From Archangiaceae bacterium (GTDB lineage: Bacteria; Myxococcota; Myxococcia; Myxococcales; Myxococcaceae): a stretch of DNA of 33,162 nucleotides. A program made the translations under genes and the position numbers. Below, piece by piece: positions 2,426 through 12,701 of this stretch. Location of the stretch: contig JAYVCD010000116.1 in the NCBI GenBank assembly GCA_043750125.1, positions 1-33,162 on the forward strand, given 5' to 3'. Below the pieces are notes generated by a model. That model did no database searches, was not told the DNA's origin, and saw only the letters and a program-made list of their open reading frames with translations. Numbering within the stretch: the first letter of the stretch is position 1; each line of letters opens with the position of its first letter.

Positions 2426-3072
2426 GCGGAAAGAAAGTCCGTCACTTTGTCCATGAACTCTTCGGCCCCACGGCCATTTCGGATGTCGAGCGACGTCACA
2501 TCGAACGTCAACACGTCGATTCCGTACTTCCCCTGCAGGACCATCGGAAAGGTCGCGTAGTACCCGTTGAGCCCGCGCAGGAATGCCGAGCCGATGCCCT
2601 TCTCTTCCTCGCGACCGCGCTTCTTGATCCGGTTCATCAGCACGTCGACCTCGGGCACGTCGAAGCAGATCACCTTGTCGGGGTGAACGATGTTCTTCGA
2701 CAGCCGCTGGAAGTACTCGAAGTACAACTCGAGCTCGGCGTCGGTCATGTTCCCCAGGCCGTGCAGGTACTTCGCGAAGATCTCGGGATCCTCGTAGAGC
2801 GTGCGGTCTTGAATGCAGCTCTTCGGCACGGTGTGGATCAGCTCGTGGTGCTCGATGCGGCGAATCAGGAACTCGAGCTGCAGCGTGAAGCTCCAGCGCT
2901 TCATCTGCCCGTAGTAGTCCTTGAGGAACCGGTTATCGATCACCGGCTCATCGAACAGCTCGTAGCCGAACTTCTGGCTGATCATCTTCGCAGCCGTCGT
3001 CTTCCCGGCCCCGATGTTTCCGGCCATCGCGACGAACCGCTTCTTCGCTTTTCTCTGAGCTTTCTTCGTCAC
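2422..3072 (-). CDS. Deoxynucleoside kinase (dNK family)
   Basis: P-loop [30 protein letters not shown] lid; likely GTG start at 3072 overlapping the tdh stop. Confidence 0.9.
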
Positions 3073-4097
3073 GCGGCCCAATCGAGCACCACCTTCCCTG
3101 ATTGGCCGGTGCGCATCGTTTCGAACGCTTCCTGGTAGTCGTCGATCTTGAAGCGGTGGGTGAGCACCGCGGTGATGTCCAGGCCCGACTGCAGCATCGC
3201 GGTCATCTTGTACCAGGTCTCGAACATCTCTCGGCCGTACACGCCCTTGAGCACCAGGCCCTTGAAGATCACCTGGTTCCAGTCGATCGCCACTTCGGCG
3301 ACGGGGATGCCGAGAATCGCGACCCGGCCTCCATGATTCATCGCTTTGAGCATCGAGCGCAGCGCCAGCCCGTTGCCGCTCATCTCGAGGCCGACATCGA
3401 AACCCTCGGTCATTCCCAGATCTTTCATCGTGTCTTCGATCGAGGAATTGCTGACGTTGATGGTGCGGGTCGCGCCGAGCTTCTTCGCCAACGAGAGCCG
3501 GTAATCGTTCACGTCGGTGACGACCACGTGGCGCGCGCCGACGTGCTTACAGATCGCCGCAGCCATCACTCCGATCGGGCCGGCGCCGGTGATCAACACG
3601 TCCTCGCCGACCAGGTCGAAGCTCAGCGCGGTGTGGACCGCATTGCCCAGCGGGTCGAAGAACGAGGCGATCTCGTCGGGGATCTCGGGCGGAATCCGAA
3701 AGACGTTCGAAGCGGGAATCGAGAGGTACTCGGCGAAGCAGCCCGGACGATTGACGCCGACTCCGATGGTGTTGCGGCACAGGTGACGCTTTCCGGCGCG
3801 GCAGTTGCGGCAGTTGCCGCACGTCAGGTGACCTTCGCCCGAGACGCGATCGCCTTTTTGAAAGCCGGTGACCGCGCTGCCGACCTCGGCCACCTCGCCC
3901 ATGAACTCGTGGCCGATGTGCATCGGCACCGGAATCGTCTTCTGGCTCCACGCGTCCCAGTTCCAGATGTGAATGTCGGTGCCGCAGATGGCCGATTTGC
4001 GAATCTTGATCAGCACGTCGTTGTGCCCGACCTGCGGCAGCGGCACTTCCTGCAGCCACAGCCCGACTTCCTTCTTCGCCTTCACCAATGCCTTCAT
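3069..4097 (-). CDS. tdh: L-threonine 3-dehydrogenase
   Basis: [20 protein letters not shown] zinc site, [20 protein letters not shown]; adjacent to kbl. Confidence 0.97.
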
Positions 4098-5290
4098 GAA
4101 ATGACTCCCAGCTTGCGGCCGACTTTGATGAAGGCTGCGATCGCGAGATCAACCTGCTCGAGGGTGTGCGCTGCAGACATTTGAGTGCGAATCCGTGCCT
4201 TGCCCTGCGGCACCACGGGGTACGAGAAGCCGACCACGTAGATTCCTTCGCCAAGCATCGCCTGGGCGAAATCACCGGCCAGCTTCGCGTCGCCGAGCAT
4301 CACCGGAATGATCGGGTGCCCGTTGCCTGCGAGCGTGAAGCCCGCCTGGGTCATCTGGCTTCGGAAGTGCGCGCTGTTCTCGCGCAGGCGGGCACGAAGC
4401 CCGTCGCTCTTTTCGAGAAGCTCGAGGCACGCCACCGTGGCGTGGGCGATCGCCGGCATCAGCGTGTTGCTGAACAGGTAGGGCCGCGCGCGCTGGCGCA
4501 GCAGGGTGACGATTGCACTTCGCGACGCGACGTAGCCGCCCGACGCGCCGCCCAGCGCCTTGCCCAGGGTGCCAGTGAGAATGTCGATCTTCCCCAGCAC
4601 CCCGTTGAGCTCGTGCGAGCCGCGGCCCCTGGCACCGGTGAAACCGACCGCGTGCGAGTCGTCGACCATCGTCAGCGCCCCGTACTTTTCCGCCAGCGCG
4701 ACGAGCCCCTTCAGGTCGGCGATCACCCCGTCCATCGAGAACACCCCGTCGGTGGCGATCAAGATGAAGCGCGCCCCGGACGCCTTCGCCTCGATGAGCT
4801 TCGCTTCGAGGTCGTTCAGGTCGTTGTTCGCGTACCGAAAGCGCTTCGCTTTGCACAGTCGGATTCCATCGATGATCGAGGCGTGGTTGAGCGCGTCGGA
4901 CACCACCGCGTCTTCTTCGCCCAGCACCGTCTCGAACACGCCCCCATTTGCGTCCCAACAGGAACCGAACAAGATCGTCTCTTCGGTGCCGAGGAAGGCC
5001 GAGATCTTCTCTTCGAGCTGCTTGTGAATGTCTTGCGTTCCGCAGATGAAGCGCACCGACGAGAGCCCAAAGCCGTGGGTGTCGAGCCCTTCTTTGGCAG
5101 CGGCGATGAGCTGCGGTGAGTTGGCGAGGCCGAGGTAGTTGTTGGCGCAGAAATTCAAGACCTGGGCGCCACCCTGGAGCGTGATCTTCGAGCTCTGGGC
5201 CGACGAAATGATCCGCTCGTTCTTGAACAGCCCCGCGGCCCGGATTCCCTCAGCCTCACTGCGCATCCGTTCGTAGAAGGCGTCGTTCAC
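4094..5290 (-). CDS. kbl: Glycine C-acetyltransferase (2-amino-3-ketobutyrate CoA ligase)
   Basis: [58 protein letters not shown]. Confidence 0.97.
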
Positions 5291-5322
5291 GAGGCCGCGA
5301 TTAGCGTGCTATGCGCAAAAAC

Positions 5323-5418
5323 GGTAGGGCTTCCTGCTCTGGTGACAGGCCCGGTCTTCAAAACCGGCGAGAGGCGATGAAAGTCGTCTCTGGCGAGTTC
5401 GATTCCCGTGCTCTACCG
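5323..5418 (+). tRNA. selC: tRNA-Sec (anticodon UCA)
   Basis: 8-bp acceptor stem GGTAGGGC/GCTCTACC with G discriminator; D arm CCTG(C)TC-TGGT-GACAGG; anticodon arm CCGGT-CTTCAAA-ACCGG; 9-bp variable arm with GAAA loop; T arm GCGAG-TTCGATT-CCCGT; 8/5 fold; CCA not encoded. Confidence 0.93.
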
Positions 5419-5549
5419 AGGCGTTGCCCGGGCCTCGCTGGACTGGGGCCACGGCGCAACAAGAAAGATGCCATTTTCGACAGTCAAATCATCGACTTGA
5501 GTCATTCTCCGTAGCGCAGTCAGATCGAAATCTGTATACCGTGCGCCGC

Positions 5550-6386
5550 GTGAAGGAACGGTACCAATACATCGAAGAGAAGAACGAGGCGCTGCGAGAC
5601 ATCCTCGCCAGCAAAAAGGTCGCCTCGCAGGACTTCCTCGAAAAGTTCGAAATGTCGTGGGTCTACCATGACAACGCACTCGAGGGCGTCGTCTACACCG
5701 GGCAGGAATTGATGGCCGCCCTGCGTCCGGGAGCGATCGCCGCCGAGGCCTCGTTGATGCCGATCGTGCTCGAGATCAGGAACCACAAGTCCTGCCTCGA
5801 ATACCTGCGCGAGGAAGCGAAGAGCATTAGCAAAAAGACCGGTGGCGTCACGATGACCCAGGTGCGGCGCATTCACGATCTGCTCGCAGGCAACACGCCT
5901 GAGGCCCAGGCCGCGCGCGCTTCAGCCGAGCGCCGTGAACGCAGTGAGAAAGAGCTGGCCAAGGAACGGGAGCGGGCCGGGTTGCGCAAGGACATGCCGC
6001 TCCACCGGACGTACTTTCACGAGATCGCGCAGCCGGCGAAGATCCTCCCGATGCTCGAGAAGTTGATCGACTTCACCGCCACCGCCGAGTTCAAGGAACA
6101 GCACCCGATCTTGCAGTCCGCGCGGGTGCAGCATCAGTTCATTCAGATTTTTCCGTTTGCAGAGCACTCGGGAAAGGTCGGCCGAATGCTGAGCAACCTG
6201 ATCTTGTTGCGCAACCAGATGTTCCCCTCGGTGATTCATTCCATCGACCGCCAGAAATACTACGAAGCGTTTCGAGGTACTGTTGGCAGCTTTTCGCACC
6301 TGATGATGGACGCGATGGAGAACTCGCTCGACAACGCGCTGAAGTACTTCCGAGACGATGCTCGAAAGTACAAAGCCGTCAATTGA
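5550..6386 (+). CDS. Fic/DOC-fold protein with a degenerate catalytic motif
   Basis: YHDNALEG helix, EIRNH, IHDLL, FIQIFPFAEHSGKVGR in place of HPFxxGNGRxxR, DRQKYYEA; GTG start at 5550 is inferred. Confidence 0.82.
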   Translation: MKERYQYIEEKNEALRDILASKKVASQDFLEKFEMSWVYHDNALEGVVYTGQELMAALRPGAIAAEASLMPIVLEIRNHKSCLEYLREEAKSISKKTGGVTMTQVRRIHDLLAGNTPEAQAARASAERRERSEKELAKERERAGLRKDMPLHRTYFHEIAQPAKILPMLEKLIDFTATAEFKEQHPILQSARVQHQFIQIFPFAEHSGKVGRMLSNLILLRNQMFPSVIHSIDRQKYYEAFRGTVGSFSHLMMDAMENSLDNALKYFRDDARKYKAVN

Positions 6387-6422: not shown

Positions 6423-7496
6423 TTGGGCGCTGCGCTCACACCTTTAAACGTCGCCTCGCTTTCCGCGAAACTGAAGGTCGAGCGGCTGATGAAGCTCGCC
6501 CGCGGCAAGAAGCGGGTCGTGATTCTCACCCACGACAATCCGGACCCCGACTCGATCGCTTCCGCGTGCGCGCTGGGGCAGATCTTCGAAAAACGGGCGT
6601 CGATGGAATCGAAGGTCGCCTACGGCGGGATCATCGGGCGCGCCGAGAACCTCGCGTTCGTGAAGGTGCTCAAGCTTCCGGTGACGCCGGTCTCGCAGAT
6701 CGTCTTCGACGAGTACGAGCTGGTCTGCCTCGTCGACACCCAGCAGCCGATTGGCAATCACTCTTTGCCTCCGGGTCTGAAGGCAGACGTGGTGATCGAT
6801 CACCACCCTCTGCGCGAAGAGGGGCTGACCGCACCGTTCGGCGATGTCGGTTTGAACTACGGCGCCACGTCGACGCTGTTGGTCGAGTACCTGCGCGCGG
6901 CGCGGCTCGAGCCGGGCCCCGAGCTCGCCACGGCGCTCTATTACGGGATCAAGGCCGATACTCGAGATCTCGAACGCCAGACCCACGATCCGGACATCGA
7001 CAGCTACCTATGGCTGTTTCCGAAGATCGATCGCGCGCTGCTCAGCCAGATTGAGCACCCCGAGCTGCCGGCTCGGTACTTCCAGCTTTATTACCAGGCG
7101 ATCAAACGGGCGAAGGTCTTCTCGGACGCGGTGATCACCGACCTGGGCGAGGTCTACAGCCCGGACATGGTGGCCGAAGTGGCCGAACGGCTTTCCTTCC
7201 TTGAAGGTCCGCGCTGGTCGCTGGCGTTCGGCTCCTTTCGCAGCCAGCTCTACCTGTCGCTGCGAGTCAGCGACCGCCGAATGCGCGCCGGTCGATTGAT
7301 TCGCGAGACCCTGGTCGGGCTGGGTGGGTCTGCGGGTGGGCACGGCAGCATGGCGGGCGCACGGATTCCGCTGTCGGGTACCCGGAAGGCGCGCGCCGCG
7401 CTGAAGCACGAAGTGGTGAGCCGCTTTCAAAAGGCCTTTGGCGTCGAAGGAGAGCGAGGCACCGCCCTGCTCAACGTCGCCCAACAAGAGCCGTGA
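6423..7496 (+). CDS. DHH/DHHA1 family phosphoesterase (NrnA-like)
   Basis: THDNPDPD, VDT, IDHHP, GATST, GIKADT, AGGHGSMAG; start position uncertain. Confidence 0.9.
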   Translation: MGAALTPLNVASLSAKLKVERLMKLARGKKRVVILTHDNPDPDSIASACALGQIFEKRASMESKVAYGGIIGRAENLAFVKVLKLPVTPVSQIVFDEYELVCLVDTQQPIGNHSLPPGLKADVVIDHHPLREEGLTAPFGDVGLNYGATSTLLVEYLRAARLEPGPELATALYYGIKADTRDLERQTHDPDIDSYLWLFPKIDRALLSQIEHPELPARYFQLYYQAIKRAKVFSDAVITDLGEVYSPDMVAEVAERLSFLEGPRWSLAFGSFRSQLYLSLRVSDRRMRAGRLIRETLVGLGGSAGGHGSMAGARIPLSGTRKARAALKHEVVSRFQKAFGVEGERGTALLNVAQQEP

Positions 7497-8617
7497 TTTT
7501 TCTCGACTACAACGCCGGCGCACCGCTTCTGGCTGAAGCGGCTGCGGCGCTCACGCTTGGGTTTTCGGCGCCGGGCAGCAACCCCTCGAGCGTGCACCAG
7601 GCGGGCAGGGCCGCTCGCAACCGGCTGAGTGCCGCGCGCGAGGCCGTGGCTCGCACTTTTGGATGCGAGGCCCGCGAGGTGATCTTCACCGGCTCGGGTT
7701 CGGAAGCAGCCACGCTGGCGATCAAGGGGGCGTGGACCGCGCGCAAGGATCAAAGCCGCACCACGGTGGTGACCTCGAGCATCGAGCACCCCTGCGTGCT
7801 CGGCGCGATGAAGCAACTCGAGGCTTCCGGAGCGAAGGTGGTGCGCCTGTCGCCCGATCGTTCGGGCCAGGTTCCGCTCGAGCGGGTGCGGGCCGCGCTG
7901 ACCCCGGAAGTGACGCTCTGCTCGCTCATCTGGGTGAACAACGAGACCGGCGTCGAGCAGCCGGTGGCCGAGGTCTCGCGAGAATGCATCCGGCGGGGAA
8001 TCGTCTTCCACACCGACGCGGTCCAGGCGGTGGGCCGGATTCCTGCGTCGCTTCGGGAAGTCCCTGCCGATCTGTTCAGCTTCTCAGGCCACAAGCTCGG
8101 AACCCTGCCCGGAATCGGGGTGCTGCTCGCGCGTCGTTCGGTGCCGCTCGAGCCGATGGTGCCCGGTCACCAGGAAGACGGAAGGCGGGGAGGAACCCAG
8201 GCCCTGGCGATGATCGAATCTCTGGTCGCAGCCCTCGCGGTCGCCGCCCGCACCGTCGAGACCGAAGGAATTCGGCTCAATGACCTGCGCCAAACGCTCG
8301 AGACCCGGGTCGCCGCCGAAGTGAATGGACAGGGCGTGGCTCGCGCACCCGGCACTTCGAACCTGCGCTTCCCGGGAATCGACGGGGAAGCCCTGTTGAT
8401 CGCGCTCGACCTGGAAGGAATCTGCGTTTCGTCCGGAGCCGCCTGCGCCTCGGGCTCACTGACCCCCTCGCACGTGCTGACCGCGATGGGGCTGTCGAAC
8501 ACCGAGGCCCAGGAGTGTCTGCGGTTTTCCTACGGCCGGGGCACCTCAGTGTCGGACATCGAAGCCGCGATCGAGGCGATCAACCGCCTGGCTGCGCGCG
8601 CGCGGATTTCGACATGA
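7493..8617 (+). CDS. NifS/IscS-type cysteine desulfurase (PLP-dependent)
   Basis: FLDYNA, NPSSVH, IEHPCV, VNNETG, HTDAVQ, SGHK (PLP lysine), SSGAACASG (catalytic Cys); GTGA coupling to the DHH gene. Confidence 0.92.
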   Translation: MIFLDYNAGAPLLAEAAAALTLGFSAPGSNPSSVHQAGRAARNRLSAAREAVARTFGCEAREVIFTGSGSEAATLAIKGAWTARKDQSRTTVVTSSIEHPCVLGAMKQLEASGAKVVRLSPDRSGQVPLERVRAALTPEVTLCSLIWVNNETGVEQPVAEVSRECIRRGIVFHTDAVQAVGRIPASLREVPADLFSFSGHKLGTLPGIGVLLARRSVPLEPMVPGHQEDGRRGGTQALAMIESLVAALAVAARTVETEGIRLNDLRQTLETRVAAEVNGQGVARAPGTSNLRFPGIDGEALLIALDLEGICVSSGAACASGSLTPSHVLTAMGLSNTEAQECLRFSYGRGTSVSDIEAAIEAINRLAARARIST

Positions 8618-10790: not shown

Positions 10791-12701
10791 TCAGCCCTTC
10801 ACCCCGGAAGCGGCTGGAGTCTCGCCACTGTCTCGTCGCTTCACCACGTTCGGTCCGCGCTCGCGGTCCGGGTGCATTTCCATTCCGGCCGCGTAGGACG
10901 TGACCTTGTTCCGGCCATTGCGCTTGCTCGCGTAGAGCGCCGAATCGGCACAGTCGACCAGCTGACCCTGCTCGACCGCATCGACCGGAAGGTTGGCGAC
11001 TCCGACCGAAATGGTGACCTTCCCACCAGGCTGAACTTCGCGGTGCTCGATCGGAGCTTCCTCCACCAGGCGACGAAGCTTGTCTCCGACTTCGAGCGCC
11101 TCGGCCCGCGTCACCTGGGGAAGCAGCACGACGAACTCTTCGCCCCCGTAGCGGGCCAGAGTGTCGACGCGGCGCACGCTGCCCTGCATCAGCTCGCACA
11201 CGTGGCGCAGCACGCTGTCGCCGGCAGGGTGTCCCGCGGCGTCGTTCAGCTTCTTGAAGTGGTCGATGTCGATCATCAGGAATGAAAGCTGAGTTCCGAA
11301 CCGATTGGCACGCGCGATTTCCAGCTCGAGCTGCGCGAACAGGTGGCGGCGGTTCGAAACGCCCGTCAGCGGGTCGGTGATCGACAGCTCGACCGTCTGC
11401 TCATGAAGCCGCGCGTTCTTCACCGCCAACGCTGCGTGGTCGGCCACCGCGGTGAAAAACTCGATCTCGCTGGCGGCGAAACCCGCCTTCTCAGGTCGCT
11501 CGAAGTTCAAGACTCCCAGCAGCTCTTCGCCGTGAAGCATCGGCAACGCGAGCAGGCTTCCCCGGCCCTTGGCGCCGGCCCCGCCGCGCATCTTGAAGAA
11601 GACCTGATCGCCCTCGAGGTCCGCCACGTAGACCGACTTCCGGGTGGCCGCCGCGTGACCACAGACTCCTTCGCCCACTGCGAACGAGAGGCCTTCGCTG
11701 CCGGGAGGATGTGCCTTGCGCACTTCGAGCCGCGCCTCTTGAAGCAGCATGATCGAAAACTTCGGCACGTTGAGCCGGGCCGGCACGGTGTCGGTGATTT
11801 TCTGCAACACCTCGTTCAGCTCGATCGACGACGTCACCGCGCGCGCCACGTCGTAGAGAATCGACAGCTCTTTGATTCGGCCTTCGAGCTGGCCTTTGAG
11901 CTCGAGCTCTCCCCGCGCCTCGTCCAGGTCGCGCCGGTTGTCGATCTCTTCGGCCTTCAAGGAAGTGATTCGATTCAGCATCCGATTGAACGCCCGGGCC
12001 AGCCGGCCAATCTCGTCCTCGCTGGTCTCTTCTGCGCGGGTCAGAAAATCGCCTTCCTCCGCACGCTTCATCGCTGCGGTCAGCTTCTGCAGCGGAGAGG
12101 CGAGGAAGATTCGCAGGCTCACTGCGGTCGCGCCCACCAGGGCCCCCGAGAACAGCAGCAAGATCATCAGCGCCTGAATGAAGCCCCCGGCCACTGACTG
12201 TTGCAGCGACGCCTCGTGCACTCTCAATTGCAGCATTCCCGCGCGCATCGTCGCTTCTCCGACATGACAGCCAGCGCAGGCCACGCCACCCAGGGGCAAC
12301 ACCACTTCGGTTCCCCCGGTGACCGCTGGCCGGGGCCCAGAAGGCTTGTCCTCTTCCTCGACATTCCGCGACCAGCGCACGATGCCGTTGGCCCCGAGAA
12401 TCCGCAGCGACGAGATGTTGGCCTGGGTCGCCCAACCCGATCGCATCGTCTGAGTCACCGCCCGGTGCACCGCGCGCGGGCCTCCGGGTTGGGTCGCATC
12501 GGCCGCGTCGGCCAGCGAAAAATTGCCCGCCACGAGCTCGGCCATGCGTACCGCTTCTTCCTGACTGGCCTGACGGACAGCCTGATCGGTGCGCTGCCAG
12601 AGGATTCCCAACGCCACCAGCGCCAACGCCAACGTCGGCAACGCGATGCTCAGCAGCAGCTTTTTGCCTACAGAGTTCAGCGGTGCTCCAGCCAGAGACA
12701 G
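10791..12701 (-). CDS. Membrane diguanylate cyclase: TM - extracytoplasmic CxxCH sensor - TM - HAMP - GAF - GGDEF
   Basis: CAGCH between two hydrophobic segments; HAMP (DEIGRLARAFNRM); GAF; TDPLTG, DIDHFK, RRVDTLARYGGEEF; start either TTG 12641 or CTG 12701. Confidence 0.9.
   Translation of the reverse strand: MSLAGAPLNSVGKKLLLSIALPTLALALVALGILWQRTDQAVRQASQEEAVRMAELVAGNFSLADAADATQPGGPRAVHRAVTQTMRSGWATQANISSLRILGANGIVRWSRNVEEEDKPSGPRPAVTGGTEVVLPLGGVACAGCHVGEATMRAGMLQLRVHEASLQQSVAGGFIQALMILLLFSGALVGATAVSLRIFLASPLQKLTAAMKRAEEGDFLTRAEETSEDEIGRLARAFNRMLNRITSLKAEEIDNRRDLDEARGELELKGQLEGRIKELSILYDVARAVTSSIELNEVLQKITDTVPARLNVPKFSIMLLQEARLEVRKAHPPGSEGLSFAVGEGVCGHAAATRKSVYVADLEGDQVFFKMRGGAGAKGRGSLLALPMLHGEELLGVLNFERPEKAGFAASEIEFFTAVADHAALAVKNARLHEQTVELSITDPLTGVSNRRHLFAQLELEIARANRFGTQLSFLMIDIDHFKKLNDAAGHPAGDSVLRHVCELMQGSVRRVDTLARYGGEEFVVLLPQVTRAEALEVGDKLRRLVEEAPIEHREVQPGGKVTISVGVANLPVDAVEQGQLVDCADSALYASKRNGRNKVTSYAAGMEMHPDRERGPNVVKRRDSGETPAASGVKG

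Follow-up and report, generated by a model that had tools for sequence, protein, structure and literature searches.

Judged from its sequence, the stretch at positions 5323-5418 of the window (the whole 33,162-nucleotide piece of DNA that was analysed) is a genuine selenocysteine (Sec) tRNA gene of the ordinary bacterial type. Our comparisons within the genome and among its relatives indicate that it is almost certainly functional and serves as selC in the standard bacterial Sec pathway, the genes of which are scattered in this lineage.

Identity and structure of the tRNA-Sec gene

ARAGORN calls tRNA-SeC(tca) at 5323-5418 as the sole tRNA in the window, and selC is the single UCA tRNA among 40 ARAGORN calls in the whole genome. 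The initial annotation had proposed a search with the Rfam tRNA-Sec model. This model (RF01852) matches 5323-5417 with 65.1 bits (gathering cut-off 47, E 2.7e-11), which is not a low score; it is the only gathering-level Rfam match in the window, and the runner-up match to RF01852 in the genome is a tRNA-Ser(TGA) with 44.8 bits. The gene has the following parts:

5323..5418, + strand: selC, tRNA-Sec(UCA), bacterial 8/5 fold, G73, no encoded CCA
5323-5330/5410-5417, + strand: acceptor stem, 8 bp, read from the sequence
5333..5349 (5333-5339/5344-5349), + strand: D arm, 6-bp stem with UGGU loop, one bulged nucleotide at 5337
5358..5360, + strand: UCA anticodon in a CU-UCA-AA loop (ARAGORN), invariant in 27/27 aligned genes
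5370..5391, + strand: variable arm, 9 bp with GAAA loop, two-sided changes in 9/9 pairs
5393..5409, + strand: T arm with G49·U65, C50-G64, G51-C63, an A52·C62 mismatch and G53-C61

The acceptor and D stems are linked by UU, the anticodon stem has 5 bp, and G48 precedes the T stem. By the numbering adopted in this analysis the D-stem bulge occupies position 13a, and the A52·C62 mismatch corresponds to 5396/5406. The discriminator G73 is located at 5418. Folding of this sequence on its own gave the acceptor, D and variable arms only (z -2.12). The full cloverleaf therefore rests on comparison.

For this comparison 27 of the 30 strong selC matches of related genomes were aligned (those of G005, G014 and G029 differ in length and were left out), and pairing statistics were computed over the 26 distinct sequences. 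With the 8/5 cloverleaf and the bulge, 97.9% of 858 cells are paired and two-sided changes occur in 21 of 33 pairs; sliding the partners by 1-3 columns as a control lowers the pairing to 35-48%. The acceptor stem is 100% paired and the T stem 93.1%, with pair 52-62 unpaired in nine of the 26 sequences. A D stem without the bulge was rejected, as it is 69.2% paired versus 96.8% in the bulged register, and covariation across the 26 relatives supports the bulge. At the junction of the acceptor and T stems, C7-G66 and G49·U65 are each found in 26/26 sequences and C50-G64 in 15/26. The 9-bp variable arm falls in the 6-9 bp range of bacterial tRNA-Sec. In the 27-gene alignment G73 (column 96) is always G, and C15, G20a, G48 and U16/U59 are kept as well (columns 17, 22, 70, 18 and 81, all invariant).

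The sequence, ARAGORN and Rfam all confirm the cloverleaf described in the initial annotation (UCA, 8-bp acceptor stem, UGGU D loop, 9-bp variable arm, G73). Its 8-bp acceptor and five-position T stem stand, but the D-stem bulge (5337) and the A52·C62 mismatch had been overlooked. It had also likened the junction to that of E. coli tRNA-Sec, rightly so: C7-G66, G49·U65 and C50-G64 are all present, and the E. coli tRNA has the same pairs (review PMC9976931). In other tRNAs G49·U65 alone raises EF-Tu affinity (PMC1904265), so rejection by EF-Tu is not implied by that pair alone.

The gene shares the 8+5 fold, the 6-bp D stem with a 4-nt loop, the 9-bp extra arm and G73 with the tRNA-Sec of Aquifex aeolicus as described by Itoh et al. 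(2013, PMC3711452), together with U16/U59, G18/U55, U20-G19-C56 and C15-G20a-G48. Unlike the Aquifex tRNA, it has the bulge at 13a and not 11a, U-A and not G-C at 14-21, the A52·C62 mismatch, C·C at 26:44 and no encoded CCA (PMC3711452). The same account gives the Aquifex D stem as bulged, and bulges in the D and anticodon stems as frequent in bacterial tRNA-Sec. In Clostridiales the D-stem bulge is at the same position, 13a, although those tRNAs belong to the 12-bp (7/5) type and selC here is 8/5 (Santesmasses et al., 2017, PMC5330540). Since both studies report D-stem bulges, the bulge here is a known kind of variation. The selC* and allo-tRNAs have a 12-bp acceptor branch, arranged 8/4 or 9/3 (PMC7609411); we rejected the selC* tRNA-Cys and allo-tRNA class for this gene because its 8/5 arrangement is backed by covariation.

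Genes of the Sec machinery

The genome (G000) is an assembly of 460 contigs that total 6.17 Mb, with a completeness of 89.4% and a contamination of 1.96%. A search of it for selA, selB and selD, as suggested by the initial annotation, recovered the latter two, and selA was not found. An intact selB without stops is located at C31:13896-15842; it scores 301.9 bits with TIGR00475 (cut-off 242.25), and its product has the SelB winged-helix domains. Two selD genes are present. The Cys-type selD is cut by the end of contig C370 and is 82% identical over 87 aa to the orthologue in G004, one of four congeners (G001-G004). The Sec-type selD on C278 (L058:2955-4034) has an in-frame TGA in the motif GG-U-GAK. 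Its product shares only 38-46% identity with the SelD proteins of 31 relatives, none of the four congeners has a close orthologue, and the gene was probably acquired horizontally. It adjoins a tRNA-Leu(TAG) gene and lies near two YeeE/YedE-type sulfur-transport genes. The trigger factor encoded on C278 is 85-96% identical to that of the congeners, so at least that end of the contig is native.

TIGR00474, PF03841 and the G004 SelA protein gave no selA match in G000. The gene is present in three of the four congeners and was not found in G002 (86% complete). The selA of G004 is part of a 4.6-kb segment. One flank of this segment matches C280 through the final base (4295), and the other matches C63 from base 1977 of 1978; G003 has the same contig order around selA. 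In G004 an HNH gene overlaps selA at its 3' end, and it is within this HNH gene that C280 breaks off. Because the selA of the congeners sits exactly where two G000 contigs break off, its absence is likely an assembly gap, and selA likely lies in an unassembled gap of ~3-5 kb between C280 and C63. A selA-less genome as a real feature was rejected on account of these contig breaks at the syntenic site. Two related HNH endonuclease genes (L060:9026-9667 and 11765-12310) stand on either side of selA in G004, and they might be part of the reason why the assembly breaks here. The 40 ARAGORN calls include no tRNA-Trp, -Asp, -Tyr or -Ile, which is another sign that the assembly is incomplete. For selU/ybbB (selenouridine), this incomplete genome yielded only a TIGR03167 fragment of 20.7 bits (cut-off 219.75).

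Candidate selenoprotein genes and SECIS hairpins

UGA-interrupted genes were searched for genome-wide, another check that had been proposed at the outset. At least six G000 genes have an in-frame TGA at the position of a catalytic Cys, and in all six the frame is open on both sides of the TGA:

C278:3039: SelD, GG-U-GAK
C416:1792: FdhA, CNRT-U-HAP
C12:20935: SelL/Prx-like, U-LL-C, TGA in 11/15 matches
C353:41970: ArsC/Spx-like, U-TG-C, TGA in 10/10 matches
C220:3368: TlpA-like, U-SV-C, TGA in 15/18 matches
C364: SelW-like, C-SA-U, TGA in 3/3 matches

All but the Sec-type SelD, which lacks a close orthologue, have the TGA in the orthologues of relatives as well, and three of the selenoproteins share 73-83% identity with their congener orthologues. 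Eight of 47 Fdh-alpha matches contain one TGA, including those of G000, G001, G003 and G004, its position having been checked in G000 only. The SelL/Prx-like protein scores 110.5 bits with NF040769 (under the cut-off of 120) and the ArsC/Spx-like protein 44.4 with NF041106 (under the cut-off of 85). The motif types UHxP, UxxK, UxxC and CxxU are all in a published list of prokaryotic selenoprotein families (PMC13188914). G019 and G038, two relatives without selA, selB, selD and a strong selC match, have a Cys codon at the site of the TGA (TGT in the TlpA-like gene of G019, TGC in the SelL-like gene of G038). G012 has the machinery yet a Cys codon in its TlpA-like gene.

A dicodon scan took 164,991 TGA junctions through two filters, to 3,884 and then 233, from which 19 were picked by eye. 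Five of these are selenoproteins of known families. The other 14, read with X, were not accepted: eight have no Pfam match, in two the only domain lies downstream of the TGA, and in four a domain spans it (peptidase M14, Kelch, Trans_reg_C and TspO, none of them a known selenoprotein family). These four in-frame TGAs, on C167, C88, C7 and C131 (L128, L130, L131 and L133), probably reflect nonsense mutations or errors of assembly. Because the SelW-like gene escaped the scan, the list of selenoproteins is a lower bound. PF07355 (GrdB/PrdB) has no match in G000, but it has none in any control genome either.

The evidence for SECIS elements 3' of the TGA is mixed. Hairpins of the SelD, FdhA, SelL-like, ArsC-like and TlpA-like genes were folded against shuffles, and one of the five beats them (TlpA-like, z -2.70; the others range from -0.88 to +0.73). 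The evidence is good for the TlpA-like hairpin, which has two-sided changes at three pairs and is lost in both Cys versions aligned. It is suggestive for the ArsC/Spx-like gene. Here a 19-nt hairpin, which begins 18 nt beyond the first TGA base, is unchanged in 8/8 aligned genomes even at silent positions (L102-L109), with no covariation among the eight. The SelD, FdhA and SelL-like hairpins are not above shuffles. After their TGA the TlpA-like and SelL-like genes have a hairpin similar to that of the ArsC/Spx-like gene, with GGAGUUYC in it. GGAGTTYC as a common SECIS motif was rejected, as genome-wide it is no more frequent after TGA than in the control (55 versus 67 matches).

Distribution among related genomes

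We searched G000 and 40 genomes from its genus, family and order, a sample of 41 genomes that are kin and hence not independent. Among these, selA was found in 30, selB over the cut-off in 30, selD in 32 and selC (≥64 bits) in 30; G033 and G038 have RF01852 matches of ~51 bits (88-89 nt), which were counted as not selC. All four components are absent in nine genomes, and the Sec trait is present in 32. One component is missing or partial in six of these 32 (selA in G000 and G002, selB in G003 and G001, selC in G020 and G022), and all six are assemblies of 450-1380 contigs. For comparison, 21.5% of the bacteria sequenced in 2006 used Sec (PMC1794560). The description of the trait as patchily distributed, given in the initial annotation, does not hold for this group.

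The selC locus

The tRNA gene is located in the following surroundings:

3069-4097: tdh, next after kbl
4094..5290, - strand: kbl, glycine C-acetyltransferase, divergent neighbour (NF005394 648.6 bits, NF003808 603.7 bits), not of the Sec system
5307..5311, + strand: TGCTA element, candidate -10 region, 12-16 nt upstream of selC
5311..5514, + strand: spurious 67-aa ATG ORF over the tRNA, Pfam-negative and not conserved
5550..6386, + strand: Fic-domain gene, downstream neighbour (PF02661, E 9.7e-11), not of the Sec system

No sel gene was found in the window among 41 distinct ORFs scanned with NCBIfam (the window holds 123 ORFs of at least 90 aa), in line with the initial annotation; selB and selD are on other contigs. 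selC stands alone because the sel genes are scattered around the chromosome of this bacterium, and a selC apart from the other sel genes is usual in this group. The view that a spurious ORF hides selC was also correct. At E up to 1, Pfam gave no match for the 67-aa ORF or any of five ORF pieces overlapping or adjoining selC, and the ORF is conserved in none of the three congeners translated (G004 has a stop at codon 9 and G002 one at codon 46, and G001 lacks the ATG). A protein encoded over the tRNA was rejected on these grounds.

The ATG of this ORF overlaps the TGCTA element, which is invariant in 5/5 genus members, stays upstream of selC in either orientation of the gene and probably represents the -10 region of the selC promoter. 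A scan of 5200-5620 for sigma-70 consensus promoters and terminators returned no sites. The segment with selC and TGCTA (5291-5549) faces fic in G000, G001 and G003 and kbl in G002 and G004, with kbl and fic unmoved. In the family beyond the genus, selC points toward fic in G005, G008 and G014 and away from it in G016; the Fic-domain gene is near selC in eight of 30 selC loci. The orientation switch looks like one or more small local inversions with no evident function, and no inverted repeat around selC (a possible recombinase site) is common to the five genus members except the acceptor stem.

A non-coding stretch of ~67 nt directly upstream of the Fic gene (5476-5542) is near-invariant in 5/5 genus members with selC in either orientation. 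It has no Rfam match and is probably a promoter or regulatory element. A NifS/IscS-type cysteine desulfurase, with scores under the equivalog cut-offs, is encoded at 7493-8617, 2 kb from selC. Cysteine desulfurases of this type can act as Sec lyases. A search of sequencing runs for expression gave no evidence of transcription: six runs have matches, each to at most 10% of the query words, and the four examined are contigs from relatives. A 435-nt contig from one relative covers selC and the start of kbl, with 26 differences over 231 nt.

Discussion

The components and clients of the pathway are known here from sequence, and its chemistry is taken from established E. coli work. On that basis SerRS would serylate tRNA-Sec, which has G73 and a long variable arm. 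SelA would convert Ser to Sec on the tRNA with selenophosphate from SelD, and SelB would bring the Sec-tRNA to UGA codons that have a SECIS hairpin downstream. The initial annotation left two readings side by side, recoding of UGA as Sec and a relic selC. The former is supported by selB, selD and six Sec-type genes. The latter finds no support, given the intact selB, the selD genes and the six TGA genes with open frames.

A recent relic, in which selA is truly lost and selC, selB and the TGA genes are still intact but no longer function and will soon decay, would account for the three failed selA queries in G000 and for the missing selA of G002. However, the expected selA site has a contig break on either side, one of them inside the HNH gene that overlaps selA in G004, the frames of the six TGA genes are open before and after the TGA, and dropout of a single component also hits selB and selC in other fragmented genomes. 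We consider such a relic very unlikely. Slightly less likely still is a true loss of selA with SelA-independent decoding of UGA, be it through another PLP enzyme, through archaeal-type PSTK/SepSecS or by insertion of Ser or Cys via tRNA-Sec and SelB.

Two further readings have next to nothing of the probability. In one, the gene is another UGA suppressor (a Ser, Trp or Cys tRNA, a selC* tRNA-Cys, or an allo-tRNA using EF-Tu). The UCA anticodon is common to such tRNAs, and the TGAs inside the peptidase M14, Kelch, Trans_reg_C and TspO domains fall outside known selenoproteins. These four are most simply nonsense mutations, though, and a suppressor of this kind fits poorly with the 13-position acceptor and T helix (8/5), the 6-bp D stem with its 4-nt loop and G73, with the co-occurrence of the tRNA with selB and selD across the genomes searched, and with conserved TGAs that alternate with Cys codons. 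In the other, equally improbable, the bin is chimeric and the contigs with selC, selB and the selenoproteins come from different organisms, as the divergent Sec-type SelD of C278 might suggest. Against this stand the low contamination, a selC that is identical or nearly so in 4/4 congeners with the same neighbours, the three selenoproteins close to their congener orthologues and the congener-like trigger factor on C278 itself. A functional selC in a dispersed Sec pathway thus remains by far the most probable reading.

By family models this pathway has the same components as selA, selB, selC and selD of E. coli (selA in the congeners only), and its FdhA has the same motif, UHxP. Unlike in E. 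coli, all four genes are unlinked, selD occurs twice and several clients have a thioredoxin fold. For Anaeromyxobacter dehalogenans, a relative if G000 is myxobacterial, Zhang et al. (2006, PMC1794560) list 11 selenoproteins: three FdhA, SelD, three Prx, proline reductase, two Trx and a DsbA-like protein. Sec use, FdhA, SelD and clients with a Prx/Trx fold are shared with that list, whereas G000 in addition has SelW-like and ArsC/Spx-like clients. This table row is the only literature on myxobacterial selenoproteins that we found; the supplementary tables of PMC5029168 and PMC5330540 may list such genomes.

The selC described here is a further bacterial tRNA-Sec gene of a well-described family. 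By itself it matters little, because tRNA-Sec is well described and most of the relatives searched have the trait. With six or more TGA genes, G000 falls under the definition of a 'selenoprotein-rich' genome given in PMC5029168. The gene is of practical use, as it indicates that UGA is recoded in this lineage and that gene callers will therefore cut short at least six redox genes in this genome.
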